DNA of 64,000 nucleotides. It comes from Bacteroidia bacterium (GTDB taxonomy: Bacteria; Bacteroidota; Bacteroidia; JANWJV01). Numbering within the stretch: position 1 is the first letter of the stretch; each line of letters starts with the position of its first letter. A program made the translations under genes and the position numbers. The DNA lies in NCBI GenBank assembly GCA_025451785.1, contig JANWJV010000001.1:1136-65135 (forward strand). Reading direction: 5' to 3'. Positions 13,888 to 43,114 of the stretch are shown here, piece after piece. The notes below the pieces were generated by a model, which saw only the letters and a program-made list of their open reading frames with translations, made no database searches and was not told the origin of the DNA.

Positions 13888-13925
13888 CCCGCCTGTGCTC
13901 TGCATGGGCGGGATTTTCTATTTTT
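13888..13925 (+). terminator. Rho-independent terminator after the histone-like gene
   Basis: Hairpin cccgcc-tgtgctctgcat-ggcggg followed by attttctattttt. It lies inside the 5' end of the track ORF 13895..15892, which argues for a later start for that gene. Confidence 0.55.
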
Positions 13926-13933
13926 ACATTCCA

Positions 13934-21360: not shown

Positions 21361-21558
21361 CCCGACATTTTTCAGAGGCACACCCAATGGGTTGAGGGTG
21401 ATGCCACGATCCGGCCTTTGAAAGCTCATAAACTGTCCGCTAGAAAAGTTTTTTCACAAGTTAGCAAATATCGTAAAATAATGCCAAGTTTGATACTTTT
21501 GACGCTTATTTTAATTCCGGGTTTAATTGACATTATTTCCCGTCTTTTACGGTAAACT

Positions 21559-22689: not shown

Positions 22690-22737
22690 AAACACCCCTT
22701 AAATCAAGCAATTTAGAGGCCTTCTGAAGTCCGTTTT

Positions 22738-22757
22738 TTGAACATTTTGATGTTCAA
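22738..22757. promoter_or_regulatory. Perfect palindrome TTGAACAT-TTTG-ATGTTCAA upstream of the adhesin gene array (candidate operator)
   Basis: 8-bp perfect inverted repeat with a 4-bp spacer, located 85-105 nt upstream of the first adhesin ORF. Confidence 0.3.
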
Positions 22758-22766
22758 AATTTAATT

Positions 22767-22799
22767 TCCCCTCTGAGCAACCTTTCCAGGGGTTTTTTT
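22767..22799 (+). terminator. Rho-independent terminator after the FAD oxidoreductase gene
   Basis: Stem cccct…agggg (22768-22792) followed by a T7 run. Confidence 0.5.
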
Positions 22800-22865
22800 G
22801 TCTGATAATGAGCTTGTTAATGTTCATTTTTTTGCTCAAATTTGCTTGTTTTAAAGCCCCTGTTA

Positions 22866-25800
22866 ATGCACAAAGCGATCCCCGTTAAATTTTGCCTGTT
22901 TTTTTTATTGCTTTTTGCTGCCCGGTCCAGTGCCCAATTCAACCAATGGACCTGGATGGCTGGCGACAATCTTACCAACCAGGCAGGGGTATACGGAACA
23001 CAGGGTGTTGGCAATGCCGCTAACAAACCCAGCGCCCGTTATGAAGGCGGCGGCGAATGGATAGACCTGCAAGGAAACTTCTGGCATTTTGGCGGTGGCG
23101 GTTTTGCTTCTTCCCGCAGCGATCTCTGGAAATACGATCCCAATACGAATATCTGGACCTGGATGAAAGGCCCTACTACTCCCGCGGTGCCCGGTGTTTA
23201 CGGCACTATGGGTGTGGCCAACATTGCTAACTGCCCGGGGGGACGAGCTTTCGCCTCTCTCACTTGGGTGGACCTGGCAGGAAACTTCTGGCTGTTCGGC
23301 GGTTCGGGCTATAACAACACTTCCACTTCAGGCCGCCTCAGCGATCTTTGGAAATACGATCCTATCACTAACATGTGGACCTGGATGAACGGCCCTATGA
23401 CGGTGAACACGCAAGGTGTTTACGGTACCAAGGGAGTTGCCAGCGCTGCCAACCGCCCCGGAGGGCGTGATGAAACAGATGCTGCCTGGGTAGATGCCCA
23501 GGGCAATTTCTGGATCTTTGGTGGTTACGGTTACGATGGTGTTGGTGGCTTCGGCTGTTTGAACGACCTCTGGAAATACGATCCCATCACCAACCAATGG
23601 ACCTGGGTGAGCGGCGATAACCTTGCCAACCAGGTGGCGGTTTACGGCACCAAGGGAATTGCCAACGCGGCAAACAAGCCTGACGGCCGTATGCAATACG
23701 CAAGCTGGAAAGATAACGCCGGCAACTTCTGGATCTTCGGCTCCAGGGGCGGAAGCGCGTTTACCCAACACGATGATCTTTGGAAATACGATCCTGTTAC
23801 GAACATGTGGACCTGGATGAAGGGCGCCGCGGGAGCGGGAAATGCTTCTGGCACCTACGGCACCAAGTGTGTTGACGGACCTAACAACAATCCTCCCGCA
23901 CTCTATGAGAACCGCTGCCGCTGGGAAGATGATTGCGGCAATCTCTGGCTTTGGGGCGGCAACAGTCACAACGATCTTTGGCGATACAGTCAGACTACGG
24001 GCAACTGGACCTGGGTGAGCGGTTCGAACCTTACGGGGCAGGCAGGTGTATATGGCACCAAGGGCGTTTCGAACGCCACCAATATGCCGGGCGCGCGCTG
24101 CGGCAATCTGCCCTTCAGGAGGAAGAACACCAATGAACTTTGGTTCTTCGGCGGCGGCCTTCCTGGTGACTTCAATGATTTCTGGAAATACGTTCCCGAT
24201 AAACCTGTGGCGTCTTTTACTTTTAATCCCAACAACGCCTGCGCGCCTATCGCGGTGGCATTTACTAATACAAGCACGCCCGGTTGTAACGAAATAAAAT
24301 CATCAGCATGGAACTTCGGTGATCCGGGCTCGGGCGCCAACAACGTTTCAACGCTTACCAATCCCAATCATACGTTCAACACACCCGGCAGCTATACGGT
24401 TAAGCTGGTGGTGACGAATTGCACCGGCAGTAAAGATTCTACCACCGCTATTGTTACAGTAACCTCCTGCGGTTTCGTGGTGAATGCCACCGGCTCGAAC
24501 ATTTGTTCCGGTTCTTGCGGATCGGTGACCACCACCTGCCTTGCAGGAACATCGCCTTACACCTATTCCTGGAATACAGGTGCCACTACTTCGAACATCA
24601 ATCCCTGCCCTACTGTTACTACGATCTACACGGTGGTGGTCACTGACGCCAACGCCGCCACCGCTTCGGCAACGGCGCAGGTAACGGTGAGCCCGCCCAT
24701 GACACTGGGAACAAATACTGTTGATGTAAAATGCAACGGAGGCTTTACAGGTTCAGCTACGGTAAGCAGCATCACAGGCGGTACTTCGCCCTACACCTAT
24801 TCCTGGGCGGGAGGTTTTGGGACCACAGGCTTCGCTACGGGATTATCGGCGGGAAATTATTCCATCACGATCACCGACTCGTTCGGGTGTACCAAAACGG
24901 CCGGCTTTGTTGTGAACCAGCCCACCGCGCTAGTGCTCAACCCAGGATCGGCAGCGGTGCTATGTAACGGCGGCAGTACCGGGTCCGCTTCCGTAACGGC
25001 AAGCGGTGGAACCACTTCGTACACCTACGCCTGGAACAACGGACAAACAAACGCTAACGCTACGGGCCTCAGTGCAGGTACCTATACAGTAACTGTTACT
25101 GACGCGAATGCATGTACCAAGTCGGTGACGGTTTCCGTAACGCAGCCCACGGCTATCATAACGACCACTACTGTAACCGCTTCTACTTGTACTTTGGGCG
25201 GCACCGCCACAGCTAGCAGCGGCGGCGGAACAGGAGTGTATTCGTATTTGTGGAGCAACGGACAAACAACGCAAACAGCTACGGGTCTTGCTATAGGAAA
25301 TTACACCGTTACAGTCAGTGACGCGAACAACTGTACCCAAACAGCAACAGCTTCTATCATTGGAACCTCAGGTCCTACTGCCGGTATAAGTATTGCGAAC
25401 AATCTGAAATGCTTTAACGATAACAGTGGTAGTACTACTGTAACAGCTACCGGTGGTACCGGTTCCTATACTTATTCCTGGAACAACGGACAAACAAACG
25501 CGAATGCTACGGGCCTTAACGCTGGAAGCTATACGGTGACCGTTACCGATAACAATGGCTGTACCTTCACGGTGAGCGTAGCGCTTACCGAACCGGCGGT
25601 TCTGGTGGCCACCGCTACCGGCGCCAATGCCTGCCAGAACGCTACCGCAAATGGAAACGCGGTTGGCGGAACGGTAAACTATAATTACCTCTGGAGCAAC
25701 GGCCAGGCAACACAAAATGCCACCGGCCTTTCCACGGGCGTTTACACTCTTACTGTTACTGACGCTAATGGATGTACCGCTACTGATACCGCGGTGGTGA

Positions 25801-26603
25801 ACATCAGCCCTCCCCCGATCATTGTGTTTACTGTTGATGATTCGGCGGGCTGTGTAGCGCTCTGTGTCAACTTCACTTGTAACACTGCTAACATCGTTGC
25901 TTATACCTGGGATTTTGGTGATGGCAGCACTATTGTTACCGGAACAATAAATACCCAGGCGCATTGCTATAAACAAACAGGGACATTCAGTGTAACGCTT
26001 ACGGTGACCGATAACAAAGGCTGCACGGCGACCTTGACAAAGAACAATATGATCTTTGTTTATCCCAATGTGGTAGCCGCCTTTAACGCGTCGCCACAAC
26101 CTACAACTATTCTCAATCCCATTATTACGTTCACCGACCAGAGCACCGGCGGTCCGAATACCTGGAGCTGGACCTTCTTTGACGATGGAGCAACAAGCGC
26201 TCTTCAAAACCCTAAACACGCCTACAAGGACAGCGGCTGCTTTAACGTGGAACTCATTGCCAATAACCAATACAATTGTCCTGACACGGTGAGTGAACAG
26301 GTATGTATACAGGGTGATTACGAATTATACGCGCCCAACGCGTTCACTCCCGATGGCAGTGGGCTGAACGATGTGTGGAATGTGAAGGGCATCGGTATCG
26401 ACCCGAACAATTTTAAGCTTTGGATCTTCGACCGCTGGGGAGATCTTATTTACGAAACCTCGGACCTTTACAAAGGCTGGGATGGACGTGCCAATGGCGG
26501 CAAGGACATCGCGCAGCAGGATGTGTATGTGTGGAAGGTGGCGACGAAGGATTTCCAGGGAGGAAAGCATTCTTACATCGGACATATTAACCTCGTTAGA
26601 TAA
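22866..26603 (+). CDS. T9SS type-B sorted cell-surface adhesin-like protein 1: signal peptide, 6-7-blade Kelch/galactose-oxidase-type beta-propeller, PKD, about 9 SprB repeats, 2 PKD, gliding-motility C-terminal domain (CHU_C)
   Basis: Propeller blades repeat as WTWMxG…GVYGTxGV…AAN(K/R)PG…G-FW-FGG…DLWKYDP. SprB-type units: CNGGxTGSAxV…GGTSPYTYSW(N/S)NGQT…ATGLxAGxYTVTVTDANGC. C-terminus: YELYAPNAFTPDGSGLNDVWNVKGIGID…DRWG…VYVWK…GHINLVR, the type-B CTD. The start is taken at MHKAIPVKF (22866); the alternative upstream Met is at 22842. Confidence 0.85.
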   Translation: MHKAIPVKFCLFFLLLFAARSSAQFNQWTWMAGDNLTNQAGVYGTQGVGNAANKPSARYEGGGEWIDLQGNFWHFGGGGFASSRSDLWKYDPNTNIWTWMKGPTTPAVPGVYGTMGVANIANCPGGRAFASLTWVDLAGNFWLFGGSGYNNTSTSGRLSDLWKYDPITNMWTWMNGPMTVNTQGVYGTKGVASAANRPGGRDETDAAWVDAQGNFWIFGGYGYDGVGGFGCLNDLWKYDPITNQWTWVSGDNLANQVAVYGTKGIANAANKPDGRMQYASWKDNAGNFWIFGSRGGSAFTQHDDLWKYDPVTNMWTWMKGAAGAGNASGTYGTKCVDGPNNNPPALYENRCRWEDDCGNLWLWGGNSHNDLWRYSQTTGNWTWVSGSNLTGQAGVYGTKGVSNATNMPGARCGNLPFRRKNTNELWFFGGGLPGDFNDFWKYVPDKPVASFTFNPNNACAPIAVAFTNTSTPGCNEIKSSAWNFGDPGSGANNVSTLTNPNHTFNTPGSYTVKLVVTNCTGSKDSTTAIVTVTSCGFVVNATGSNICSGSCGSVTTTCLAGTSPYTYSWNTGATTSNINPCPTVTTIYTVVVTDANAATASATAQVTVSPPMTLGTNTVDVKCNGGFTGSATVSSITGGTSPYTYSWAGGFGTTGFATGLSAGNYSITITDSFGCTKTAGFVVNQPTALVLNPGSAAVLCNGGSTGSASVTASGGTTSYTYAWNNGQTNANATGLSAGTYTVTVTDANACTKSVTVSVTQPTAIITTTTVTASTCTLGGTATASSGGGTGVYSYLWSNGQTTQTATGLAIGNYTVTVSDANNCTQTATASIIGTSGPTAGISIANNLKCFNDNSGSTTVTATGGTGSYTYSWNNGQTNANATGLNAGSYTVTVTDNNGCTFTVSVALTEPAVLVATATGANACQNATANGNAVGGTVNYNYLWSNGQATQNATGLSTGVYTLTVTDANGCTATDTAVVNISPPPIIVFTVDDSAGCVALCVNFTCNTANIVAYTWDFGDGSTIVTGTINTQAHCYKQTGTFSVTLTVTDNKGCTATLTKNNMIFVYPNVVAAFNASPQPTTILNPIITFTDQSTGGPNTWSWTFFDDGATSALQNPKHAYKDSGCFNVELIANNQYNCPDTVSEQVCIQGDYELYAPNAFTPDGSGLNDVWNVKGIGIDPNNFKLWIFDRWGDLIYETSDLYKGWDGRANGGKDIAQQDVYVWKVATKDFQGGKHSYIGHINLVR

Positions 26604-26613
26604 TAACCAATAA

Positions 26614-29600
26614 ATGAAAAACGCCCTTTCAATTCTTATCGCTTTGTTCTTGCTCCTAAAGGCGGACGCCCAGTCGGCACCCGGAGGCTGGACGACTGAT
26701 CCTTTCAGGCAGCATGCTTTCATTGAGAACAAAGGACAGTTCGATGGCAAAGACAAGCGCAGGAACAGCGAGATCATGTACGGTGTCTCCAATGATGGCG
26801 TTGATATTTATTTTACGAAGGAAGGAATTACCTGGAGGCATGACCGGTCAGAAAGGGAAGAAAAGAAAATGCTTCCGATCATTGGAGGGAAAATAGAGGA
26901 AGAAGAGGAAAAAATAGAGCTCATCGCCCACATGGCCCATATGAACTGGGAAGGCGCCGACGCTAATGTAAAGATCATCGCGAGCGATCCCATTACCTCC
27001 TACTACACCTATCCTGACCTTAGTGATCGTTCTGGAAATAAAACGCTCAAGGCTTTTGCTTATAAGAAGATCAGGTATCAAAACCTTTACCCGGGTATTG
27101 ATGTTGAGTTCGTGGTTCACGAAAAGAGCGGGGTAAAATACAGTCTCCATCTCCAGCCAGGCGCCAATGCTTCGCTGGTAAAGATGATCTACAAAGGGAT
27201 AGAGGGAATATCAAAGGACGCGGAAGGGAATATTCGTGTTAGTACCCGATTCGGTGAACTGGTTGACCATGCTCCTTCCAGTTTTTACCAGGGTGGAAAA
27301 GGTATCATTTCTTCTTTTGAGTTGAAGGGGTCATCGGTAAGTTTTAAAATGGGAACCTACGATCATTCCAAAAGCGTGGTGATCGATCCCTGGCTTGCGA
27401 ACCCGAATTACACTGGCTTTAACTCCGCTTACGACGTTAACTTCGACGTGGCGGGTAACGTATATGCCTGCGGCTCTTACAATCCTTTCAAACTGGTAAA
27501 GGTCAATAACGCCGGCGCGGTGCAATGGACCTTCAACGCGGCTCAGATCAACGCGACCTATTACGGTGATTTCGCTACAGACGAGGGGACGGGTACCTGC
27601 TACATAGTGGAGGGCCTCAACAACGGACAGGGCTCCAACATTCTTAAAGTAAACAACCAGGGAATACAAACAGCGAAGTTCAACGGCAATACCCAGATCA
27701 CAGAGATGTGGCGCTGCGAGTACAACCGCTGCATCAAGAAGATCGTTATTGCGGGCGGCGGTGTGAGCTTTACCTTCCAGGCGGCGATGATGGATACTTC
27801 TATGTCGACACTCACTCCTGTGAACGTACTTTCCACCAATAAGACCTTTCGCGATATGGCTTTGCTGGGCATCGATAACAACAGCAATTTCTGTTACATG
27901 AGCACCACCAAATCGGTGAGCGCGCCTACCATCGCCGATGACAATATCCTCATCAAGTGTCCTATTCCCGCGCTGATACCACTGGGTTTCGCGATACGCA
28001 CCTTTCATCGCATCGGAGAGATGGGCAGCGTTTGTTATGTGAACAATATGGTGCCGAACGGCAACGCGCCGGCGGTTGGGTTTAACGGGCTTACAGTAAG
28101 CCCTACCGGTGTTTATACTTATGACAGCGATTCGGTGAAACGCTGGAACAAAAATACCGGCGCATTGCTCGCTGCGATCGATGCTTCTGCCACTGCTCCC
28201 ATCTACGCGGGTTATACCGGCAGTGAGATACAGGTAAAATGGGGCGGCATTTGGGCCGATGAGTGCGATAACCTTTACGTGGGTGTTGATAAGGCGATCA
28301 AGTGTTATAACAGTAACCTTACCCTTACAAATACGATCGCGCTTTCGAACACAGTGTTCGATGTGAAGCTGGGGGTCAATAACAAGCTCTACGCTTGCGG
28401 TGTGGGCTTTGTGCAGGAGATCGCTGTAACACCATTGAATAAGACAATTACAATGAGCGCTACTCCTTCTACCGGTTGCAGCGGTTGCAGCGGTACGGCT
28501 ACGGCAAACATCACTTGCGGCAACGGTAACCTTTCGGGATACGGTTATAGCTGGTCGCCGGGCGGACAGTCGACACAAACGGCTACTGCCCTTTGCGCGG
28601 GTATCTATACGGTAACCGTTACCAGCTATTGTGTGAACTCCATGAGCGCTACCGTGCAGGTAACAGGCGGCAGCGGCAGCGGTCTTGTTGTTGCCGGCAG
28701 TACCATTGGCGGCGGCTGCGGATCACTGGGAAGCGCTTCAGCGACTTCTTCGAGCGGTACCGGCCCTTATACTTACAGTTGGAATCCCACAGGACAAAAT
28801 ACGCAGACGGCCACCGGGCTTACGAACGGAACTTATACGGTTACTATTACCGATGCTAATGGTTGCAGCGGAACCACTTCGATCAACGTGACCAACAATG
28901 GAAGTCTTACCGCGAACACCACATTCTCTAATGTGCTGTGTAATGGCGGCGTTAACGGCACCGCATCAGTTACAGCAAGCGGCGGGAGCGGTACCATGAC
29001 CTATTCCTGGAGCAACGGGCAAACAAACCAAACGGCGACTGGACTTGGTTCGGGAACCTACACTGTTACGGTAACCGATAATAGCGGCTGCAGTACCAGC
29101 AAAACAATAAGTGTAACGCAGCCTGCAGCGCTCGCGCTTAACCAGGGCCAGGTGAATGCCGGTTGTAATACCACAGGCAGCGCTTCGGTGACAGCAAGCG
29201 GCGGTACAGGCGCATTCACATATTCATGGAACAACGGACAAACCTCGCAAACGGCAACCGGCCTTGCCGCGGGCAGCTATACGGTTACAGTTACTGACAA
29301 TAACGGCTGCAGCACAACGGCAGCCTATACTATAACGGGCGGCGTGGGCCCTACTATCAGCGGTGTGAACCCAACGAACGTATTGTGTAACGGCGGCACG
29401 AATGGCTCCGCTACCGCTACCGGCACAGGTGGCACAGGCACCCTCACCTACTCCTGGAGTAACGGACAAGCCACATCAAATGCTACTGGTCTTACGGCGG
29501 GAACGTATACTGTTACTGTGACCGATAACAATGGCTGCAGCACCACCACTACTGTGATCGTTACCGAACCTCCTGTTCTTACGGTGAATGCCAACGGAAC

Positions 29601-30576
29601 TGTTAGCTGCGCGGGACAAGCCGCAACGGCTTCGGCAACAGGTGCCGGCGGTACAGGCGCCTATAATTATCTCTGGAACAATGGCCAGGCCAGTCAAACA
29701 GCTACCGGCCTCACGAATGGAACATACACGGTGGTGATCACCGACGCGAACAATTGCACCGCAACAGCAACCGCTGTTGTGAATGCCAACGCGAGCCCTT
29801 CGGCTGTGTTCACTGGCGTGGATACAGTGGGATGCGTTCCGCTTTGTGTGACCTTCAACAATGCCTCAGCCAACATTGCCACCTGGTCGTGGACCTTTGG
29901 CGACGGAAGTACCGGTACAGGCGCTTCACCGAAACATTGTTATACTTCACCCGGAACCTATAGCGTTTCGCTTACGGTTATTGACAATAACGGTTGTACG
30001 GGGACCTATACCAAACCTAATTGGATACAAGTGTATCCCACAGTAACGGCAGCCTTCAGCGCTTCGCCGCAACCTACCACGGTGCTTAACCCTGTTATAC
30101 AATTCACCGACCAGAGCCAGAACGCCACCTCCTGGAAATGGAGCTTTGGCGACCTTCTTAACTCCACTTCTATCTTGCAGAATCCCAGTTTCAATTACAA
30201 AGACAGTGGTTGTTATAACGTGGTGCTCATTGCCGATAACCAATACAACTGTCCGGATACGGCCCAGGAACAAGTGTGCATACAAGGCGACTACGAACTA
30301 TACGCGCCCAATGCTTTTACTCCTGACGGCAGTGGTCTTAATGATCTGTGGAACGTAAAAGGCATTGGCATTGACCCCGCTCATTTCAAGCTATGGATAT
30401 TCGACCGCTGGGGCAATCTTATTTATGAGACCTCCGATCTTTACAAAGGCTGGGATGGCCGTGCCAACGGCGGCAAGGACATCGCGCAGCAAGACGTTTA
30501 CGTTTGGAAGGTGGCGACGCAGGATTTCATAGGCAATAAGCATAATTACATTGGACATATCAATCTCGTTCGGTAA
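26614..30576 (+). CDS. T9SS type-B sorted adhesin-like protein 2: signal peptide, FIENKGQ-motif N-terminal domain with an acidic Glu/Lys stretch and SBBP-like (GNVYxxG) beta-propeller repeats, about 10 SprB repeats, 2 PKD, CHU_C CTD
   Basis: The N-terminus (…HAFIENKGQFDGKDKRRNSEIMYGV…) is homologous to the N-terminus of adhesin 4. GNVYACGSYNP / LYACGVGF are SBBP-like. The SprB, PKD and CTD region is paralogous to the other three genes. Confidence 0.85.
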   Translation: MKNALSILIALFLLLKADAQSAPGGWTTDPFRQHAFIENKGQFDGKDKRRNSEIMYGVSNDGVDIYFTKEGITWRHDRSEREEKKMLPIIGGKIEEEEEKIELIAHMAHMNWEGADANVKIIASDPITSYYTYPDLSDRSGNKTLKAFAYKKIRYQNLYPGIDVEFVVHEKSGVKYSLHLQPGANASLVKMIYKGIEGISKDAEGNIRVSTRFGELVDHAPSSFYQGGKGIISSFELKGSSVSFKMGTYDHSKSVVIDPWLANPNYTGFNSAYDVNFDVAGNVYACGSYNPFKLVKVNNAGAVQWTFNAAQINATYYGDFATDEGTGTCYIVEGLNNGQGSNILKVNNQGIQTAKFNGNTQITEMWRCEYNRCIKKIVIAGGGVSFTFQAAMMDTSMSTLTPVNVLSTNKTFRDMALLGIDNNSNFCYMSTTKSVSAPTIADDNILIKCPIPALIPLGFAIRTFHRIGEMGSVCYVNNMVPNGNAPAVGFNGLTVSPTGVYTYDSDSVKRWNKNTGALLAAIDASATAPIYAGYTGSEIQVKWGGIWADECDNLYVGVDKAIKCYNSNLTLTNTIALSNTVFDVKLGVNNKLYACGVGFVQEIAVTPLNKTITMSATPSTGCSGCSGTATANITCGNGNLSGYGYSWSPGGQSTQTATALCAGIYTVTVTSYCVNSMSATVQVTGGSGSGLVVAGSTIGGGCGSLGSASATSSSGTGPYTYSWNPTGQNTQTATGLTNGTYTVTITDANGCSGTTSINVTNNGSLTANTTFSNVLCNGGVNGTASVTASGGSGTMTYSWSNGQTNQTATGLGSGTYTVTVTDNSGCSTSKTISVTQPAALALNQGQVNAGCNTTGSASVTASGGTGAFTYSWNNGQTSQTATGLAAGSYTVTVTDNNGCSTTAAYTITGGVGPTISGVNPTNVLCNGGTNGSATATGTGGTGTLTYSWSNGQATSNATGLTAGTYTVTVTDNNGCSTTTTVIVTEPPVLTVNANGTVSCAGQAATASATGAGGTGAYNYLWNNGQASQTATGLTNGTYTVVITDANNCTATATAVVNANASPSAVFTGVDTVGCVPLCVTFNNASANIATWSWTFGDGSTGTGASPKHCYTSPGTYSVSLTVIDNNGCTGTYTKPNWIQVYPTVTAAFSASPQPTTVLNPVIQFTDQSQNATSWKWSFGDLLNSTSILQNPSFNYKDSGCYNVVLIADNQYNCPDTAQEQVCIQGDYELYAPNAFTPDGSGLNDLWNVKGIGIDPAHFKLWIFDRWGNLIYETSDLYKGWDGRANGGKDIAQQDVYVWKVATQDFIGNKHNYIGHINLVR

Positions 30577-33500
30577 ATGAAAAAACTTTCTCTCCTACTC
30601 ATCGCCCTGTTCAGCTTCAGCGCTTCCCGTGCGCAGATGGAGGCGAACATATGGTACTTCGGCGCCAACGCCGGTGTAACCTTCGCGAGCGGCGCGCCTG
30701 TTGCCCTTACCAACGGCAATATGAACTCCTTTGAGGGGAGCGCCACTATTTGCGACGCGGCAGGCAACCTGCTGTTCTATACCGACGGCATGACGGTTTG
30801 GAACAAGACCATGGCGGTGATGACCAACGGGACAGGTCTAATGGGCAACTCCTCCTCCACTCAATCGGGCGTGATCATTAAGAAACCCGGAAGCAACACC
30901 ATCTATTACCTCTTTACTACCGATGCGCAAGCAGGGGCCAACGGCCTTCGCTGGTCGGAGATCGACCTGGCACAGTCGGGCGGCAACGGTGCTGTTACCG
31001 CTAACAAGAACATTCTCCTATGGGCCTCCACTACCGAGAGGATCGCCGGTGTAAGGCATTGTAATAATATTGATGTATGGGTGGTGACCCATGACTGGAA
31101 CTCAAACAACTTCCGCACCTATCCTGTCACGTCGGCAGGCATTGGCGCTGCAATAAATACGGCCATCGGCTCAGTGCACAATGGAACCACCGGCAATACC
31201 ATTGGTTATCTTAAAGCGTCGCCCGACGGAAAAAAACTTGCCTGCGCTATACGTTACTTAAGCGCTTTTGAGCTTTTCGACTTTAACAATTCCACGGGTG
31301 TGATCAGTAATTTTGTTTCGCTGGGCACCACATTCCCCTACACCTATGGTGTGGAGTTCTCTCCTGACGGAACAAGGCTTTACGGCAATTCTTCGCAGCC
31401 GGGAAGGATATGGCAATGGAACCTTTGCGCGGGAAGCAACGCGGCCATTGTGGCTTCAGCAACGCAGATCGGATCTTCTGCCCAAGGCTGGTTGGGTGCG
31501 CTTCAGATGGGAAGGGATAAAAAGATCTACATGTGTCGTTATACCGATCCCTGGCTGGCGGTGATCCCCAATCCTAATACACTCGGTACGGGCTGCGGTT
31601 ATACTGATAATGGCGTGAGCCTGCTGGGAAGAGCTTCCAACTTTGGTTTGCCTAACTACGTGGCCAACTATTTCAAAACGGTGCCGCCCTTCACTACGGT
31701 GATCAACTGCCTTAACGTGACCTTTACTCCGCCTACCGTAAATAACACCAATTGCTCCGGATCTACTAACGCGGTGGTATCGCAGTCGTGGAACTTTGGC
31801 GATCCTAACTCAGGTGGAAGTAATACTTCTACCAGCAGCACTTCTTCCCACACCTTTACAAGCTCCGGTACTTTTAACGTGGTATTGGTGCTTAACTACG
31901 CTTGCGGTTTCGATTCCATCAAACAAACCGTTACGGTTACCAGCTGCGGTATTACGGTAACCGCTCCCGGCGGAACTGTTTGTCCGGGCGGCTGTAAAAA
32001 CATCACGGCTACCGTAAGCGCGGGCACTTCGCCTTATACTTATTCCTGGAGCACCGGTGCTACTACGCAAAGTATTAATCCTTGTCCTACGATCACTACT
32101 TCCTATACCGTTCTGGCAACCGACGCTAACGGAGCCACTGCTTCAACGGTGGCAACGATAACGGTGAGCAGTGCTATTGTTATAAATACCACGGTGCAGA
32201 ATGTGAAATGCAATGGAGGGACCACAGGTTCGGCAACCTCTACAGTAAGCGGCGGCACTTCGCCCTATACGTATTCGTGGAGCAATGCTCAAACAGGTTC
32301 AAGTACTTCGGGCCTTGGCCAGGGCAATTACACCTTAACGGTTACTGACGCTAACGGTTGTACCGGTACGGCTACCGTTGTTATTACGCAGCCCAGCCAG
32401 TTGGCAGTAGCAGTTGCAGGAGGCAGTATCAGTTGTAATGGTGGTAATAATGGCTCGTTGAGCGCAACCGCCTCCGGAGGAACTTCTAACTATACCTATA
32501 GCTGGAGCAACGCCCAGACAGGAGCTACAGCAACGGGATTAATAGCGGGCACCTACACAGTAACAGTAACGGACGCGAATGGATGTACTGCTACTGCTAC
32601 TGCCACCGCTACCCAGCCAACTGCCATTGCTATTCAAACGTCAACCACCAACGCTACCTGCGCGCAAGCAGGAACTATAAGTACGACCGTAACAGGCGGC
32701 ACCGGCTCCTACACTTATACCTGGAGCAACGGTCAAACAGGAGCTACGGCTACCGGTCTGAGCGCCGGAACGTATATTGTAGGTGTGGCTGACGCGAATG
32801 GCTGCACGAAGACAGCTACCGCCACCATTACAGGCATTGCCGGCCCTACAGCGGCAGGCATGAGCACGGTGAACAATGTGCTTTGTAACGGCGGCACTAC
32901 TGGTTCGGCAACAGCAACCGCAACCGGCGGTACAGGTTCTTACACTTACAGCTGGAGCAATACGCTTACCAACGCAACTGCCACCGGTCTTGCCGCGGGT
33001 ACATATACCGTAACCATTACCGACGCGAACAACTGCAGCATAACCGCCGCCGTAACTATCACCGAGCCCACGGCCCTGGTAGTAACGGCGAATGGAAGCA
33101 GTGCTTGCCTTAATGCTACCGCTACCGGAAGCGCCAGCGGCGGAACAGGCACTTACAATTACCTGTGGAGCAATGGCCAGAACACCCAGAACGCTACCGG
33201 CCTTAACGCAGGCGTGTATACGCTTACCGTTACTGATGCTAACGGATGTACCTCGCAGGATACAGCCCTTGTTTCGATCAGCCCTCCCCCATTGGTAGCC
33301 TTTGCGGCCGATGATTCAGCGGGCTGTGTGGCTTTGTGTGTGAACTTTACCTGCAACAGCTCCAACATTACCAGCTATACCTGGAATTTTGGTGATGGCA
33401 GCAATGGTAATGGTTCTACAGTGAACCACTGCTATAAAAACACCGGTTCATTTACTGTTACGCTTACGGTTACCGATAATAACGGCTGTACCGGTTCGCT

Positions 33501-34068
33501 GACCAAGAACAGCTATATAAGTGTTTATCCAAATGTGGTGGCGTCTTTCACATCCGCCCCCCAGCCCACGACGATCCTGAATCCAACGATCACCTTTACG
33601 GACATGAGCCAGGGCGGAGCGAACACATGGAGCTGGACATTCCTCGACGATGGAAGTACCAGCACCCTCCAGAATCCCAGGCATACCTATAAGGACAGCG
33701 GCTGCTACAACGTGCAGCTCATAGCTGATAACCAATACAATTGTCCTGACACCACTTCAGAAGTGATCTGCATCAACGGCGACTTTGAGCTTTTCGCGCC
33801 CAATGCATTCACTCCTGACGGTACCGGTCTTAATGATAACTGGAACGTGAAAGGCATCGGCATTGACCCAAATCATTTTGAACTGTATATCTACGATCGC
33901 TGGGGAAATCTCATCTTCAAGACCACTGATCTTTACGAAGGCTGGAATGGTCATGCCAACGGTGGCAAGGACATTGCTCAGCAGGACGTTTACGTTTGGA
34001 AGGCCTTTGTGAGGGATTACCAGGGAGGTAAACACAATTACATTGGACACGTTACGCTTGTCAGATAA
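30577..34068 (+). CDS. T9SS type-B sorted adhesin-like protein 3: signal peptide, distinct N-terminal beta-rich head (IWYFGANAGVTF…), PKD-like domain, about 9 SprB repeats, 2 PKD, CHU_C CTD
   Basis: The ATG follows the preceding stop with no gap. The head domain is unlike those of genes 1, 2 and 4. The C-terminal cassette is conserved (…FELFAPNAFTPDGTGLNDNWNVKGIGIDPNHFELYIYDRWGNLIFKTTDLYEGWNG…HVTLVR). Confidence 0.85.
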   Translation: MKKLSLLLIALFSFSASRAQMEANIWYFGANAGVTFASGAPVALTNGNMNSFEGSATICDAAGNLLFYTDGMTVWNKTMAVMTNGTGLMGNSSSTQSGVIIKKPGSNTIYYLFTTDAQAGANGLRWSEIDLAQSGGNGAVTANKNILLWASTTERIAGVRHCNNIDVWVVTHDWNSNNFRTYPVTSAGIGAAINTAIGSVHNGTTGNTIGYLKASPDGKKLACAIRYLSAFELFDFNNSTGVISNFVSLGTTFPYTYGVEFSPDGTRLYGNSSQPGRIWQWNLCAGSNAAIVASATQIGSSAQGWLGALQMGRDKKIYMCRYTDPWLAVIPNPNTLGTGCGYTDNGVSLLGRASNFGLPNYVANYFKTVPPFTTVINCLNVTFTPPTVNNTNCSGSTNAVVSQSWNFGDPNSGGSNTSTSSTSSHTFTSSGTFNVVLVLNYACGFDSIKQTVTVTSCGITVTAPGGTVCPGGCKNITATVSAGTSPYTYSWSTGATTQSINPCPTITTSYTVLATDANGATASTVATITVSSAIVINTTVQNVKCNGGTTGSATSTVSGGTSPYTYSWSNAQTGSSTSGLGQGNYTLTVTDANGCTGTATVVITQPSQLAVAVAGGSISCNGGNNGSLSATASGGTSNYTYSWSNAQTGATATGLIAGTYTVTVTDANGCTATATATATQPTAIAIQTSTTNATCAQAGTISTTVTGGTGSYTYTWSNGQTGATATGLSAGTYIVGVADANGCTKTATATITGIAGPTAAGMSTVNNVLCNGGTTGSATATATGGTGSYTYSWSNTLTNATATGLAAGTYTVTITDANNCSITAAVTITEPTALVVTANGSSACLNATATGSASGGTGTYNYLWSNGQNTQNATGLNAGVYTLTVTDANGCTSQDTALVSISPPPLVAFAADDSAGCVALCVNFTCNSSNITSYTWNFGDGSNGNGSTVNHCYKNTGSFTVTLTVTDNNGCTGSLTKNSYISVYPNVVASFTSAPQPTTILNPTITFTDMSQGGANTWSWTFLDDGSTSTLQNPRHTYKDSGCYNVQLIADNQYNCPDTTSEVICINGDFELFAPNAFTPDGTGLNDNWNVKGIGIDPNHFELYIYDRWGNLIFKTTDLYEGWNGHANGGKDIAQQDVYVWKAFVRDYQGGKHNYIGHVTLVR

Positions 34069-34076
34069 AAAGACCT

Positions 34077-37000
34077 ATGAAAAATAACCCCTTCGTTCGT
34101 TTCGCCTTTATTGCCAGCATAGCGCTTGCCTTTTCAGGCGAAGCGCTTGCGCAGCAAACTACTTCCAAAGGCTGGAGCCTGAATCCTTATGAGCAGAAAG
34201 TGTTCATTGAGAACCAGGGCCAGTTCAATGGCAAGGACAAGCTAAGGAACTCTCAGATACTTTTTGGTGTGGACAATCTGGGTGTACAAATGTATTTTAC
34301 CGCCAAGGGTCTCACCTATCGTTACGATGAAACGGAGGTGATCCCCGGCGACAGGAAGGAGGAAGTGAACAAGGCAGGCGGTGAAAAGGATGAAGAAGAA
34401 AGAGAAAAAGAGGAAAAGAAGCGCAAGATCATCACACAGACACATACTGCTCACCTCGAATGGTTAGGCGCCAACCCTAACGCGCAGCTGCTGGCCGAAG
34501 AGATGGCCACTGAATATTCGAGCTATGCCAACGAGGAAGATCCCCAGCATCAGTTGGTGACCCATGCCCGTTCTTACCGTAAACTGCTTTACAAGAACCT
34601 CTACCCTAACATCGATGTAGAATACATCTTCCACAAGACCTCGGGAATGAAATACACGATTATCCTTCATCCTGGCGCAGACCTTACGCAGGTGAAGATG
34701 AAGTGGGATGGTGATAAGTCAGTTTTCAAAGCGCAGGATGGTAATATCCATGTGCCTACCCATTATGGTGATATCGTTGATCACGCACCGCTTAGTTTTT
34801 TTGAAGGTGGGGATGTTGTTCGTTCTTCATTCCAGTTCGAGAAAGGAGTTGTTTCTTTTTCACTTGATCTCACCGCAAGTCAAAAATCAAAGATCAGCAA
34901 TCAAAAATTGATCATCGATCCATGGACGATCAACCCGGGCCTTACGATCCAAAACAAAGCAATGGATATTGAGAAGGATAAAGCCGGTAACGTTTATGTG
35001 TTTGGCGGTAAGACACCTTACAAGCTGAAGAAGTACGATATCAACGGCAACCTGCTTTGGACATTCAATACCCCTTACAACGGCTGGTACGGCGATATGG
35101 CGGTAGATAATCCCGGTAACGCGTTCATCTCCGAAGGTTATAACCAGGCGAACTCTTTTCCCAACCTGATCAAGGTAAACCCCGCGGGTGTTCAGCTGTT
35201 TCTTTACTCCATTAACGGATGCTGCGAGTTTTGGTCATTGGCCTTTAACTGCAGTTATACCCAGCTTACGGTAGCGGGTGGCCTTTGGTCAGGGCGTATC
35301 TCCAATGTGAACACCACCAACGGTACAGTGACCGGCACTACTAATATCAATCCCGGCGAATCGAGGAGTATGACCATGGGGCCCAACGGTCGTTTTTATT
35401 CCATTACCACCACCAATCAATTGGTATGTGTGAACGGTGCCTTTGCCAATGTATTTACGGTGGGCAATGGTTACGCTTTTACGTACAATATGCCTTTGTA
35501 TACCAATGGGTCCACACAGCAAGGCGGCTCCAACTTCATTACGGTGTATAGCAACTTTGTGTATACCACCAATGGCGCGCGTCTCGATAAATGGAATGCC
35601 ACTACAGGCGGCAATCTTGGCGGCGTGGTATTACCCGGAGGAGTATTCGGTATGAACGGCGGTATTTTTTGCGATGCCTGTGGAAATATCTTCGTAGGAA
35701 CTTCCAACTCAGTTCTCAAATACGATCCCAGCCTTACACTGCTTAGCACCACCAATACCGCTAACCCGGTGTATGACGTATCGCAAGGTACCGGCAGCGA
35801 GGTGCTTGCTTGTGGCGACAACTTCGCTTCTTCACTCAATATTTCCAGCACCAATTGCTCCGTGAGCCTTACGTTGAGCAAAGCCTCTACAGGCATTGGC
35901 TGCGGAGGTGGTAATACCGGCACTGCCAGCGTTACTGCTTTAGGCGGCACCGGGCCCTATACTTATTCATGGAACCCGGGAGGTTTTACTACTTCTTCGC
36001 TCACGGGTCTCTCTGCTGGTACTTATACCTGCTTAGTGACCGATGCTTCCTCTTGTTATTCCGATACCATAAGCGTAACAATAACTTCTACCGGCGGCGG
36101 ATTGAACTCCACCATGTCGTCGGTAGGTGCGTTGTGCAACGGCGGCAACAACGGTACTGCCACCATTACAGCTAACGGAGGAACATCGCCTTATACCTAT
36201 TCCTGGACCTCCTTAGGACAAAACACACAAACAGCCACCGGCCTTAGCGCGGGTACTTATACCGTTACGATCACTGATGCCACTGGCTGCAGCGGAACCA
36301 AAACGGTAACCGTAACGCAGCCAACAGCGGTAACGGTTAACCAAAGCCAGGTAAATGCCGGCTGTAATGCCACCGGCAGCGCTTCCGTGACCGGCAGCGG
36401 CGGAACAGGTGCTTTTACCTATAGCTGGAACAACGGACAAACCAATCAAACGGCTACCGCTCTTGCCGCCGGCAGTTATACGGCAACGGTAACTGATAAT
36501 AACGGCTGCTCAAAAACAACCACCTTCACCATTACAGGTGGAACGGGACCAACTATAAGCGGCGTAACCCCAACCAATGTACTTTGCAATGGAGGTACAA
36601 GCGGTATTGCTACTGCCACAGGATCTGGCGGAACAGGGGCCCTCACCTACTCATGGAACAACGGCCAGAACACACAAGGCGCTACGGGCCTTAGTGCAGG
36701 AACTTATACGGTAACGGTATCTGACAACAATGGTTGTACGTCAACCACCACAGTAGTCATTACCGAGCCTCCTGTACTTACAGTGAATGCAAACGGAACG
36801 GCGGCTTGCTCGGGATCCAACGCCCAGGCTTCTTCTACGGCGGCGGGCGGTTTTGGTGCCTTTACCTATTCCTGGAACAACGGGCAGAATACCGCTACAG
36901 CTACAGGCCTTAGCACCGGCAATTATACAGTTACCATCACCGATGCCAATGGATGTACGGCCCAGGCTACAACAGCTGTTAACTCACAGGCCATTCCTTC

Positions 37001-37775
37001 GGCGGTATTTACTGGTGTTGATACCGCGGGCTGCGCCCCGCTTTGCGTCACTTTTAATAATACCACGGCGAATATCACCAATTGGTCATGGAATTTTGGC
37101 GATGGTAACAATGGTACCGGCGCTTCACCCAAGCATTGTTACACTTCACCCGGTACTTACAGCGTAACGCTTACGGTTACTGATAATAACGGCTGTACCA
37201 GCACCTACGCGAAGAACAACTGGATACAGGTATATCCGCAGGTGACGGCTGGCTTTAGCGCTTCGCCGCAGCCCACTACCATTCTTAATCCTACCATCCA
37301 GTTCACCGACCAAAGTTTGAACGCCTCTTCCTGGAGCTGGAGCTTTGGCGATATACTTAACTCTACTTCAAACCTGCAAAATCCTACGTTCAATTACAAA
37401 GACAGCGGCTGTTACAATGTGCAGCTCATTGCCGATAACCAATACAATTGCGCCGACACCGCCAATGAACTGGTGTGCATACAGGGCGACTACGAGCTGT
37501 TCGCTCCCAACGCTTTTACTCCTGACGGCAGCGGTCTCAACGATGTGTGGAATGTAAAGGGCATCGGTATTGATCCCAATAACTTTAAGATGTGGATATT
37601 CGACCGCTGGGGTAATTTGATCTTCGAAACTTCAGACCTGTACCAGGGTTGGAACGGAAAGGCCAACGGAGGCAAAGAGATCGCGCAGCAGGATGTGTAT
37701 GTTTGGAAAGTGGCAACGAAAGACTTCTTAGGCAATAAGCATAATTATATCGGGCACGTTTCATTGGTAAGATAA
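34077..37775 (+). CDS. T9SS type-B sorted adhesin-like protein 4: signal peptide, FIENQGQ-motif / SBBP-like N-terminal domain (paralog of gene 2 head), about 8 SprB repeats, 2 PKD, CHU_C CTD
   Basis: …KVFIENQGQFNGKDKLRNSQILFGV…, an acidic KEEVNKAGGEKDEEEREKEEKK stretch, and GNVYVFGGKTP SBBP-like motifs. The C-terminal cassette is conserved. Confidence 0.85.
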   Translation: MKNNPFVRFAFIASIALAFSGEALAQQTTSKGWSLNPYEQKVFIENQGQFNGKDKLRNSQILFGVDNLGVQMYFTAKGLTYRYDETEVIPGDRKEEVNKAGGEKDEEEREKEEKKRKIITQTHTAHLEWLGANPNAQLLAEEMATEYSSYANEEDPQHQLVTHARSYRKLLYKNLYPNIDVEYIFHKTSGMKYTIILHPGADLTQVKMKWDGDKSVFKAQDGNIHVPTHYGDIVDHAPLSFFEGGDVVRSSFQFEKGVVSFSLDLTASQKSKISNQKLIIDPWTINPGLTIQNKAMDIEKDKAGNVYVFGGKTPYKLKKYDINGNLLWTFNTPYNGWYGDMAVDNPGNAFISEGYNQANSFPNLIKVNPAGVQLFLYSINGCCEFWSLAFNCSYTQLTVAGGLWSGRISNVNTTNGTVTGTTNINPGESRSMTMGPNGRFYSITTTNQLVCVNGAFANVFTVGNGYAFTYNMPLYTNGSTQQGGSNFITVYSNFVYTTNGARLDKWNATTGGNLGGVVLPGGVFGMNGGIFCDACGNIFVGTSNSVLKYDPSLTLLSTTNTANPVYDVSQGTGSEVLACGDNFASSLNISSTNCSVSLTLSKASTGIGCGGGNTGTASVTALGGTGPYTYSWNPGGFTTSSLTGLSAGTYTCLVTDASSCYSDTISVTITSTGGGLNSTMSSVGALCNGGNNGTATITANGGTSPYTYSWTSLGQNTQTATGLSAGTYTVTITDATGCSGTKTVTVTQPTAVTVNQSQVNAGCNATGSASVTGSGGTGAFTYSWNNGQTNQTATALAAGSYTATVTDNNGCSKTTTFTITGGTGPTISGVTPTNVLCNGGTSGIATATGSGGTGALTYSWNNGQNTQGATGLSAGTYTVTVSDNNGCTSTTTVVITEPPVLTVNANGTAACSGSNAQASSTAAGGFGAFTYSWNNGQNTATATGLSTGNYTVTITDANGCTAQATTAVNSQAIPSAVFTGVDTAGCAPLCVTFNNTTANITNWSWNFGDGNNGTGASPKHCYTSPGTYSVTLTVTDNNGCTSTYAKNNWIQVYPQVTAGFSASPQPTTILNPTIQFTDQSLNASSWSWSFGDILNSTSNLQNPTFNYKDSGCYNVQLIADNQYNCADTANELVCIQGDYELFAPNAFTPDGSGLNDVWNVKGIGIDPNNFKMWIFDRWGNLIFETSDLYQGWNGKANGGKEIAQQDVYVWKVATKDFLGNKHNYIGHVSLVR

Positions 37776-38254
37776 TGGCGGATAAGTTTTTTGATTCGAA
37801 AGAGTATACCACTCTTTATCTCGGCGCATCGGGCGCTGAGAATGGCGCGAAAGGCATAGAGGCTCTGGTTGACCTGCTAAGCAACCCGGAAAACCGCGAG
37901 GTAAGGGAAGATGTGCTGAAGCTCCTGAGGATGGAGAAAAAAGCACAAGCTTTATTGTTGGAGGCTATCAATGATAAACAGTACAAGGAGCAGTATCAGT
38001 TCCTGGTAGCTGCCTGCTGGGAAGCCGGTATCGATTGCGATAATAACATCGTTCTGTTTACCGATATCGCCATCAGCGGCGATCTTGCCACAGCCATAGA
38101 GGCCATTACCGTTATTGAGGAAATGCCAGGCCCTTTTAAAGAAAAGGATATTGAGGAATGTATAGCTAAGCTGGGAAAGGCTGTGAAAAGCCCGGCCCCC
38201 GGTAAGGAAGAACTGCTGAAAGACCTTTCACTGTTTATGGAGAACCTCCGCTGA
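37775..38254 (+). CDS. Hypothetical soluble alpha-helical protein, translationally coupled (TAATG) to the last adhesin gene
   Basis: 159 aa, no signal peptide. Helical, HEAT/armadillo-like composition. The ATG shares 1 nt with the upstream TAA stop. It ends 1 nt before the convergent deaD stop. Confidence 0.5.
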   Translation: MADKFFDSKEYTTLYLGASGAENGAKGIEALVDLLSNPENREVREDVLKLLRMEKKAQALLLEAINDKQYKEQYQFLVAACWEAGIDCDNNIVLFTDIAISGDLATAIEAITVIEEMPGPFKEKDIEECIAKLGKAVKSPAPGKEELLKDLSLFMENLR

Positions 38255-38255
38255 A

Positions 38256-42190: not shown

Positions 42191-43114
42191 TTAGAATTTG
42201 TCGCGGATGATATAATTGGGGCGGTTCTTCACCTCGTCGTAAATACGCCAGATGTATTCGCCGATGATCCCCAGCATCAGCATCAGTAAACCTCCTATTA
42301 TGAGCAGCACCATCATAATGGGCGCCCAGCCGGTGAAAGGGGTGTGATGTACGAAATAAGCATAAAGGATAGTGAGCGAATACAGGAAGCCGCCGAAAGC
42401 GGTAAAGATGCCCAGGAATGAAATGAGGCGTATGGGAAAATAACTTACGTTGAGGAAAGCCACCATGAAATTGCCAAAGCGCTTCGCCAGGCTGTAGCCC
42501 GATTTACCATGCTCGCGCTTTTGGCGCTTGTAAGGAATATAGCTGATGCTGAAGCCCACCCAAAGTATATCGCCCTGGAAGAAACGGTTGCGCTCACTGA
42601 TGGAGTTAACGGCGTTCATGGCCTTGCGGTCGAGCAAGGTAAAGTCGAAACCACCGGGAGGAATGTTGGGAAGTGATATCCTTAAAAGCTTGTAGGCTAC
42701 TTTCGAAGTGAGTGCCCAGGAGAATCCATCGTCGCGCGCTTCGCGGTAGCAGATCACTATCTCGTTGCCCTTTTGCCATTGTTCCAGCATCTTCATTAGC
42801 TGCTCGGGAGGGTCCTGGAGGTCGGCCGACATGTTGATGACCGCATCGCCGGTAGCGGCTTCCCAGCCGGCAAGGATGCCTGCCATTTGTCCGAAGTTCC
42901 TGGAGAAATCGATCAGCACTACTCCATTGGGGTCAGCGGCCTTCAGCTCCTTTAATAGTTCAAGCGAATGATCCTTTGAGCCATCGTTAATAAAAATGAA
43001 CTCCCAGGTAAACGATGAATTGAACGAAGTGATAGTGCTGCGCAGGCGCTCGTAAAGCGCGCGAAGTGAACCTTCGTTATTATAGACCGGTATTACTACG
43101 GAGATCTTTTTCAC
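42191..43114 (-). CDS. GT2 polyprenyl-phosphate glycosyltransferase (GtrB/CsbB/ArnC/DPM1-like) with two C-terminal TM helices
   Basis: 307 aa. VVIPVYNNEG…INDGSKD…, a DxD-like DLQDPPE motif, and a C-terminal double TM segment (…LGIFTAFGGFLYSL… / …IMMVLLIIGGLLMLMLGII…), typical of bactoprenol-phosphate sugar synthases. Confidence 0.85.
   Translation of the reverse strand: MKKISVVIPVYNNEGSLRALYERLRSTITSFNSSFTWEFIFINDGSKDHSLELLKELKAADPNGVVLIDFSRNFGQMAGILAGWEAATGDAVINMSADLQDPPEQLMKMLEQWQKGNEIVICYREARDDGFSWALTSKVAYKLLRISLPNIPPGGFDFTLLDRKAMNAVNSISERNRFFQGDILWVGFSISYIPYKRQKREHGKSGYSLAKRFGNFMVAFLNVSYFPIRLISFLGIFTAFGGFLYSLTILYAYFVHHTPFTGWAPIMMVLLIIGGLLMLMLGIIGEYIWRIYDEVKNRPNYIIRDKF

Follow-up and report, generated by a model that had tools for sequence, protein, structure and literature searches.

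Tandem type-B cargo of the type IX secretion system with propeller heads of three families in a Bacteroidia genome

A 64-kb window of contig JANWJV010000001.1 from a Bacteroidia bacterium (the window being the whole stretch of 64,000 nucleotides that was analyzed) contains four consecutive genes, g1 to g4, whose products are by sequence criteria type-B cargo of a type IX secretion system (T9SS) with SprB-type stalks. All four heads are β-propellers and belong to three unrelated sequence families. The reading favored here, with moderate confidence, is that g1–g4 form a tandem set of type-B T9SS cargo in which adhesive propeller heads are carried on stalks and are served by one shuttle. Two points are the most useful—the discordance between heads and tails, and the occurrence of four orphans with one type of C-terminal domain (CTD)—and both bear on the specificity between CTDs and shuttles. 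Otherwise, the array is an ordinary adhesin-gene expansion, that is, a well-formed example of a common family and no new kind of system.

Type-B sorting domains, stalks, and heads

The assignment as type-B cargo is carried by the C termini. TIGR04131 is matched by g1, g2, g3, and g4 with 52.5, 53.1, 49.2, and 53.3 bits, respectively (cut-off 35), over profile positions 3–85 of 85, and the match extends to the last residue in all four proteins. CHU_C (PF13585) is likewise found in all four with 49–53 bits (cut-off 27). The first-pass annotation, made from the sequence without database searches, had named a gliding-motility C-terminal domain, which these scores confirm, so that one outcome that it gave as refuting, C termini without a type-B match, did not occur; the Pfam/TIGRFAM search that it proposed places PF13573, PKD, and TIGR04131 above cut-off in each protein. 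The type-A profile TIGR04183 matches none of the four C termini, and its one internal match, in g2, is below threshold (16 vs 23 bits).

The window encodes the T9SS component PorD, and hence the host genome probably uses this secretion system. With gyrA, clpB, recN, and bamD also present, the window is a stretch of chromosome from a Bacteroidota genome with a probable T9SS. Its GyrA has 82–87% identity to that of "Bacteroidia bacterium" MAGs (metagenome-assembled genomes), and an exact 40-mer taken from the g2/g3 junction is absent from the GTDB representative genomes. A 661-residue type-A cargo protein (TIGR04183, 47.3 bits vs a cut-off of 23) is encoded about 10 kb from the array. Type-B CTD proteins require a shuttle of the PorP/SprF family, the gene of which usually lies immediately downstream of the substrate, but orphans occur (PMC12618676). 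Since no PorP/SprF match was found among the scanned open reading frames (ORFs) of the 64-kb window, g1–g4 are type-B substrates of the kind that Paillat et al. 2025 call "orphan" (PMC12618676). Matches to sprC/sprD or to gld families are absent from the window as well.

All four ORFs are intact and lie on the plus strand with intergenic gaps of 10, 0, and 8 nt (g1/g2, g2/g3, and g3/g4), and each has its own start codon and signal peptide. From their spacing, they form a tight set that is probably co-transcribed. A chance origin is extremely unlikely with ORFs of >1100 residues and domain E-values of 1e-13 to 1e-45. The first-pass annotation had described four consecutive plus-strand genes of 1,163–1,320 residues, the coordinates of which proved exact, with gaps of 0–10 nt and signal peptides, in agreement with the present measurements. 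The signal peptides are visible by eye in 4/4 proteins as Sec-type peptides: the n-region is basic, a hydrophobic core is present, and an A-x-A/A-Q site (ending A-Q) falls within residues ≤20–26. A scan for promoters and terminators, which does not model Bacteroidota promoters, yielded counts equal to the shuffle expectation. Upstream of g1, no exact TAnnTTTG motif is present, and the stability of a hairpin followed by a T-run (22768–22799) does not exceed that of shuffled sequence (z = 0.48).

The stalks are built from SprB-type units and PKD domains. PF13573 is matched with 103, 77, 118, and 76 bits in g1 to g4 (cut-off 28), and PKD_4/PKD matches occur in all four. The unit consensus reads roughly ...CNGGxTGSA...GGTxPYTYSWSNGQT...GTYTVTVTDANGC..., and a hidden Markov model (HMM) built from this ∼76-residue unit counts six units in g1, g2, and g3 and five in g4. 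The 8–10 repeats reported earlier are thus too many, since a number of 7–9 is reached only when PKD domains are counted. Each unit past the first contains exactly two cysteines in all four proteins. In g1 and g3, an extra PKD domain is inserted between the head and the repeats. Hence, the stalk consists of nine immunoglobulin (Ig)-like modules in g1/g3, of eight in g2, and of seven in g4, and the earlier count of two PKD domains applies to the C-terminal pair of all four proteins but not to g1 and g3, which have three in total. The SprB-type units match the Ig-like stem of the T9SS substrate GhpA of Aureispira (PDB 9flp, E about 1e-12), and no other solved structure resembles them in sequence; this match, although weak and compositionally biased, supports an extended Ig-like stalk. 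The O-glycosylation motif D[ST][AILVMT] is not enriched, with 3–4 occurrences per protein vs about 4.5 expected.

The head of g1 belongs to the Kelch families, with Kelch_3 at 69 bits (cut-off 22), Kelch_6 at 54 bits, and Kelch_2 and Kelch_4 also above cut-off; Kelch structures in the PDB, among them YjhT, are matched as well. The DLWKY and the WTW[MV] motif each occur six times in it, about 70 residues apart, which indicates a six-bladed propeller. The 6–7-blade Kelch-type propeller of the first-pass annotation agrees with both the families and the motif sets. The heads of g2 and g4 start with DUF7948 (PF25778; 153.9 and 144.1 bits, cut-off 27, profile positions 1–214 of 214) and have in common a FIENKGQ/FIENQGQ motif and an acidic loop, followed by a propeller region of roughly 350 residues. 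This region is without a Pfam match, even at E ≤ 10. An AlphaFold2 model of the g2 head (pLDDT 78.6, pTM 0.82; both model-confidence scores) shows the DUF7948 β-sandwich and then a propeller, which Foldseek superposes on WD40/YncE propellers with a template-modeling (TM) score, normalized by target, of ∼0.7. Of the FIENKGQ/acidic-stretch/SBBP-like propeller proposed earlier, the motif, the acidic loop, and the propeller fold thus stand. The SBBP identity (PF06739) was discarded, as neither head gives a Pfam hit at E ≤ 10; a homolog of this head type at locus L001 has a "faint" SBBP hit only.

The g3 head, previously described as different and β-rich, is more exactly a propeller of the lactonase/YncE/YVTN-like type. 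It belongs to no Pfam family (PD40 is matched below threshold only), and its model has a pLDDT of 96.1. Its best Foldseek matches in the PDB are 6-phosphogluconolactonase-like, YncE, YWTD, and YVTN propellers; one of them, 1l0q, is a surface-layer protein from an archaeon. In the latter, a tandem YVTN propeller is directly followed by PKD, likewise in a cell-surface setting. The match of 1l0q to the g3 head is one of fold, and that to the PKD region one of sequence, but it is archaeal, has an identity of only about 17%, and lacks SprB units and a T9SS CTD. Homologs of the g3-type head number 1596 at about 50% identity and occur alone or fused to OmpA, PKD, or type-A or type-B CTDs; judged by these varied architectures, it behaves like a mobile binding module. 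Fusions of such a propeller to an OmpA C-terminal domain form a well-conserved family of ∼504 residues across Bacteroidota (proteins P0007–P0017 and similar; loci L083 and L084). A PorE-like role for these fusions was considered and dropped, since L083 and L084 are not located beside porP-like or type-B genes. Taken together, alternative head modules on related stalk and CTD modules, as first proposed, are what the array presents, with the heads drawn from three unrelated propeller families.

Histories of heads and tails

The four stalks fall into two sub-lineages. From the first PKD domain onward, g1 and g3 are 62% identical in protein sequence, and residues 708–1320 of g2 are 75% identical to residues 617–1232 of g4 (blastp). 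The stalk/tail module common to g2 and g4 starts within the SprB-unit region and has a nucleotide identity of 65–83% in a sliding window. In a quartet test on the stalks, 136 informative nucleotide sites favor (g1,g3)(g2,g4), and the alternatives are favored by 41 and 36. The "one stalk" of the first-pass annotation is hence replaced by the pairs (g1,g3) and (g2,g4). Two-gene blocks are offset by about 7.2–7.7 kb, in line with this topology, and duplication of one such block, from g1–g2 to g3–g4, is the most likely way in which the array grew.

The 3′ ends behave differently from the stalks. In the CTD region, the quartet test gives 10, 14, and 12 sites, which favors no topology, and g3 is the outlier. 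Over the last 100 residues, the identity is 92% for g1–g2, 87% for g1–g4, and 86% for g2–g4, and g3 is 75–77% identical to the others (75% to g1); the background among unrelated loci is 34 ± 7%. This pattern fits a block duplication with later exchange at the 3′ ends or with strong constraint there.

When metagenomes were scanned with the g2 tail, the nearest relatives, with head identities of 64–80%, came from sample Ga0163144. On contig L085, a g2-like gene (head 64% identical to g2) is followed 23 nt later by a g3-like gene (head 80%), and hence the adjacency of g2 and g3 predates the split from the L085 lineage. On L088, a YncE-like-headed paralog precedes a DUF7948-headed gene. The alternation of YncE-like and DUF7948 heads is thus conserved on both contigs.

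The comparison with L085 also brings out the discordance between heads and tails. By its head, g2 is closer to its L085 ortholog (64%) than to g4 (33–34%), whereas the tails pair g2 with g4 (84% identity, vs 75% between g2 and L085). In a neighbor-joining tree of 255-residue tails, g2 and g4 group together with 84% bootstrap support, and the L085 g2-ortholog is placed outside with 88%. Because the paralogous tails are closer than the orthologous ones, gene conversion or module exchange is indicated, and the sequences point to recombination or gene conversion in the course of evolution. Monophyly of the four window tails has 0% support, and hence their homogenization is partial. The tail family is lineage-wide at 59–84% identity, with outgroups at most 52%. 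An early impression that the tails are unique to this genome (none >57% identical elsewhere at first) was ruled out by metagenome tails at 58–79%.

The discordance occurs in both directions among other loci. Similar CTDs with dissimilar heads are found at L003 (86% CTD and 35% head identity), L012 (70 and 39%), and L076 (74 and 38%), and similar heads with dissimilar CTDs at L055 (39 and 76%), L051 (34 and 64%), and L080 (30 and 64%).

Proteins with the architecture of g2/g4, that is, with a DUF7948 head, number 132 in a protein search (best identity 49%), and more than 570 such loci occur in species-representative genomes. These relatives are all from uncultured Bacteroidia, Chitinophagales, and Flavobacteriales metagenome-assembled genomes (MAGs); the few that are named are "SprB repeat-containing" or "gliding motility-associated C-terminal domain" proteins. 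They often form tandem runs of two or three, sometimes with Kelch- or YncE-like-headed neighbors (L085, L088, L001, L015, L025, L071, L106, and L111, of which the last six are mixed-head arrays from the same three head families). Loci L001–L082, with flanks of ≤10 kb, were scanned with our own HMMs for adjacent type-B genes on the same strand, and runs of one, two, and three genes were found in 44, 11, and 2 loci, respectively. The run of four in the window is thus the longest in a sample with such flanks. No PorP gene was found beside the related arrays L087, L101, L106, L111, and L001. The architecture and the tandem mixed-head layout are therefore common in Bacteroidia MAGs and already covered by the domain models used in annotation; no paper on DUF7948 or on such arrays was found in the literature.

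A family of ∼510-residue helical ORFs adjoins DUF7948–SprB–CTD genes on the opposite strand on contigs of sample Ga0163149. Its members have a mutual identity of 22–30%. No Pfam match was obtained in the three members scanned, the L001 copy has no precomputed Pfam hit, and no homolog is present in the window. This family may represent a linked regulator.

Proposed shared shuttle and rival explanations

According to the favored reading, each protein would be exported by the Sec pathway through its N-terminal signal peptide, its type-B domain would be recognized, and the protein would be passed through the T9SS translocon and held on the outer surface by an outer-membrane protein of the PorP/SprF family. 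PorP-like proteins have been proposed as anchors of type-B cargo (PMC9143113). The propeller head would then be displayed on 7–9 Ig-like modules (0–1 PKD, 5–6 SprB-type, 2 PKD), with the g2 and g4 heads as two deeply diverged subtypes of DUF7948 plus propeller. Because the CTDs are 75–92% identical and no shuttle gene is linked, one shuttle, encoded elsewhere, and one surface destination would be common to all four proteins, which would differ only in the ligand bound by the head. Recombination or gene conversion would have re-paired heads with stalk/tail modules after the block duplication.

This reading has a close counterpart in the orphan cargo proteins Fjoh_1123 and Fjoh_1720 as well as Fjoh_4934 of Flavobacterium johnsoniae (PMC12618676). 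These are also predicted adhesins with a type-B CTD and no adjacent sprF/porP-like gene, and all three have a common shuttle, Fjoh_1677. Several substrates with related CTDs thus use one shuttle, as is proposed for g1–g4. Shuttles accept closely related non-cognate CTDs, the CTD alone sets the destination, either the gliding track or static sites, and in structure prediction cognate pairs of CTD and shuttle reached ipTM values above 0.8 (PMC12618676). In contrast to the F. johnsoniae orphans, g1–g4 are tandem and probably co-transcribed, have CTDs that are 75–92% identical, and carry propeller heads.

Several points weigh against this reading. The evidence is sequence-based, with the genome in view through a single 64-kb window, outside of which the shuttle, the T9SS core, and any gld genes would lie, and we infer co-transcription, surface anchoring, the shared shuttle, and the adhesive (ligand-binding) role from it. 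Herein, co-transcription is judged from spacing alone. The similarity of the CTDs could be due to strong purifying selection instead of a shared shuttle. Propellers from these families can be enzymes, and the "ortholog" contigs are metagenomic and may mix several organisms.

A mobile role would make g1–g4 SprB-like adhesins that travel on the gliding track and serve the cell as alternative "tyres" for different surfaces. Type-B CTDs and SprB repeats are present in all four, and with SprB of F. johnsoniae they have in common PF13573, the TIGR04131 CTD, and the route through Sec and T9SS. A CTD alone suffices for such movement (PMC12618676), and Gorasia et al. propose PorP-like anchors without a PorE-like partner for mobile type-B proteins (PMC9143113). 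However, Fjoh_3952 is static, as are most foci of the Fjoh_1123 CTD (PMC12618676). SprB, which moves on a helical track, has 6497 residues and is encoded with sprC, sprD, and sprF; g1–g4, with 1163–1320 residues, are about one fifth of its size, have 5–6 repeats and globular propeller heads, and lack an sprF-like neighbor as well as sprC/sprD or gld matches in the window. The organism is, moreover, uncultured. We regard this alternative as unlikely, although it keeps some plausibility. RemA is another T9SS-secreted surface adhesin of F. johnsoniae, and its overall size is similar to that of g1–g4. Its CTD, however, is of type A (PorV route), and it has a lectin domain (PMC12618676), whereas g1–g4 combine a type-B CTD with propellers, and a Pfam/NCBIfam scan found no lectin family in them. 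The likeness to mobile adhesins of the SprB/RemA type drawn in the first-pass annotation is hence not supported, given the size of the proteins, the lack of an sprF/porP-like gene in the window, and the CTD and lectin domain of RemA.

The heads may instead be catalytic (lactonase-like or resembling Kelch-type mutarotases/oxidases), in which case g1–g4 would be surface-tethered or secreted enzymes and the stalk only a spacer. For the g3 head, the annotations of the top structural matches read 6-phosphogluconolactonase or lactonase-like, the g1 head matches the Kelch protein YjhT, and T9SS cargo is often enzymatic; M4 peptidase and β-helix cargo is encoded at the neighboring loci L101 and L111. 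Yet these structural matches reach TM scores of only 0.5–0.6 at 10–13% identity, many nonenzymatic propellers score equally, and no enzyme family was matched by sequence. The g3-type head is also fused elsewhere to OmpA, PKD, and type-A/type-B CTDs, as expected for a general binding module. An enzymatic role therefore appears improbable to us.

The resemblance of the SprB-type units to GhpA raises the question of whether g1–g4 might build multimeric rigid appendages that catch cells or particles in the manner of a grappling hook. GhpA is the closest sequence match of the units, and with it g1–g4 have in common an Ig-like stalk, an N-terminal functional head, and the use of T9SS; the two cysteines per unit recall the disulfides that join neighboring Ig-like domains of GhpA (bioRxiv 10.1101/2024.01.29.577165). 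But the match is weak and biased in composition, and GhpA is a heptamer of a 5898-residue protein with 52 Ig-like repeats, a hook head, and adjoining PorP/PorE homologs (GhpB/C). None of these is found in g1–g4, which have 5–6 repeats, propeller heads, and no PorP/PorE neighbors. Such appendages are very improbable here. By sequence criteria, g1–g4 are SprB-repeat proteins, and they are distinct from SprB itself (by size and operon), RemA, and GhpA.

Least probable of all, to a degree that comes close to dismissal, is a cassette locus, variable in phase or antigen, that switches actively and expresses one head at a time by DNA rearrangement. The tandem paralogs have a 3′ module in common, and the CTD region looks homogenized in g1, g2, and g4. 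However, no inverted repeats of ≥30 nt occur in 22700–38300, no recombinase or invertase is encoded in the window, and the paralogs are only 40–84% identical in nucleotide sequence, without long identical tracts. A switching cassette or shufflon is thus largely refuted. Each of the four complete ORFs has a start codon and a signal peptide of its own, and the g2–g3 arrangement is old and stable since it is kept in the relative at 64–80% head identity. "Cassette-like," as the family had been termed, therefore holds on an evolutionary timescale only.

Beyond the favored reading, heads and type-B tails may reassort independently in this uncultured Bacteroidia lineage, with the head determining the ligand and the tail the shuttle and destination, and gene conversion may keep the tails of one genome matched; we put this forward tentatively. 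If so, a single PorP-like shuttle could present a varying set of propeller heads, and the window would be a "one tail, many heads" array, of which L055, L051, and L080 show the reverse; together they would constitute a combinatorial code for both the ligand and the place of delivery.

Far less is understood of type-B than of type-A T9SS substrates, and how CTDs are matched to PorP/SprF shuttles is an open question (PMC12618676). The array represents a natural experiment in this respect, with unrelated heads, CTDs of 75–92% identity, and no linked shuttle gene, together with a relative in which heads and tails have discordant histories. Alignments of such CTD sets could help to define the residues that specify the shuttle. 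In addition, DUF7948, a domain of unknown function, is given a probable cell-surface setting, and a "YncE/PD40-like" propeller that is widespread in Bacteroidota, also in OmpA fusions, is seen used as a T9SS-displayed head.

Neighborhood of the array

Upstream of the array lies a gene for an FAD oxidoreductase. Downstream, the ATG of orf159 overlaps the stop codon of g4 by 1 nt (TAATG), and orf159 may be co-transcribed or translationally coupled with g4. Its product is helical, lacks a signal peptide, and has a weak HEAT-like hit only; no Pfam/NCBIfam family was matched, and its membership in the system is doubtful. A convergent gene for a DEAD-box helicase follows orf159. Homologs of the FAD oxidoreductase, the 1540-residue TPR protein described below, the DEAD helicase, orf159, and orf597 are absent from L001–L082.

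Table 1. Coordinates of the array, of its modules, and of other features. Nucleotide positions refer to the window unless a contig is named; aa, amino acids.
Feature	Coordinates	Strand	Remarks
g1	22866–26603	+	1245 aa counted from ATG; TTG at 22842 opens the ORF
g2	26614–30576	+	1320 aa; ORF
g3	30577–34068	+	1163 aa; ORF
g4	34077–37775	+	1232 aa; ORF
g1 domains (residues)	signal peptide 1–24; Kelch propeller ∼25–442; PKD ∼445–540; six SprB-type units 542–992; two PKD 993–1150; type-B CTD 1156–1245
g2 domains (residues)	signal peptide; DUF7948 36–260; ∼350-aa β-propeller ∼262–610; six SprB-type units 617–1070; two PKD; type-B CTD 1231–1320
g3 domains (residues)	signal peptide; lactonase/YncE/YVTN-like propeller 20–370; PKD ∼375–460; six SprB-type units 464–913; two PKD; type-B CTD 1074–1163
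g4 domains (residues)	signal peptide; DUF7948 43–283; propeller-like region ∼285–600; five SprB-type units 604–982; two PKD; type-B CTD 1143–1232
Shared stalk/tail module of g2/g4	28735–30573 (g2); 35925–37772 (g4)	+
Last-100-residue tracts (type-B CTD)	26301–26600 (g1); 30274–30573 (g2); 33766–34065 (g3); 37473–37772 (g4)	+
orf159	37775–38254	+	159 aa
PorD	8937–9842	−	NF052317, 383.9 bits (cut-off 170)
Type-A T9SS cargo	47798–49783	+	661 aa
1540-aa protein	16807–21429	−
orf597	40388–42181		597 aa
GT2 and PMT_2 glycosyltransferases	42191–44859	−
TPR + SpoIIE/PP2C paralogs	13895–15892	+	665 aa
	61240–63237	−	665 aa
KGG-motif ORF	50039–50686	+	215 aa
g2-like and g3-like genes of L085	204–4004; 4027–4662
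YncE-like-headed and DUF7948-headed genes of L088	390–3884; 3928–4629
∼510-aa helical ORFs	L001 12054–13589; L101 3140–4666; L106 4229–5770 and 11281–12810	−

Also upstream, about 1.4 kb from the array and separated from it by the FAD oxidoreductase gene, lies the gene of a 1540-residue protein. A CarboxypepD_reg-like N-terminal domain is combined in it with TPR repeats as well as a weak TraC-like stretch, and no family is assigned with confidence. Farther away, two paralogous 665-residue proteins consist of TPR and a SpoIIE/PP2C phosphatase; they are SiaA-like, with scores below the SiaA cut-off. An ORF of 215 residues contains KGG stress-induced repeat motifs (PF10685) and overlaps ORFs on both strands, which renders the gene call ambiguous. 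On the other side of the array, orf597, an ORF without a family, is located next to a GT2 glycosyltransferase (PgfS/ArnC-like, below equivalog cut-offs) that is followed by a PMT_2 membrane glycosyltransferase, and this stretch may form a module for surface or lipid glycosylation.

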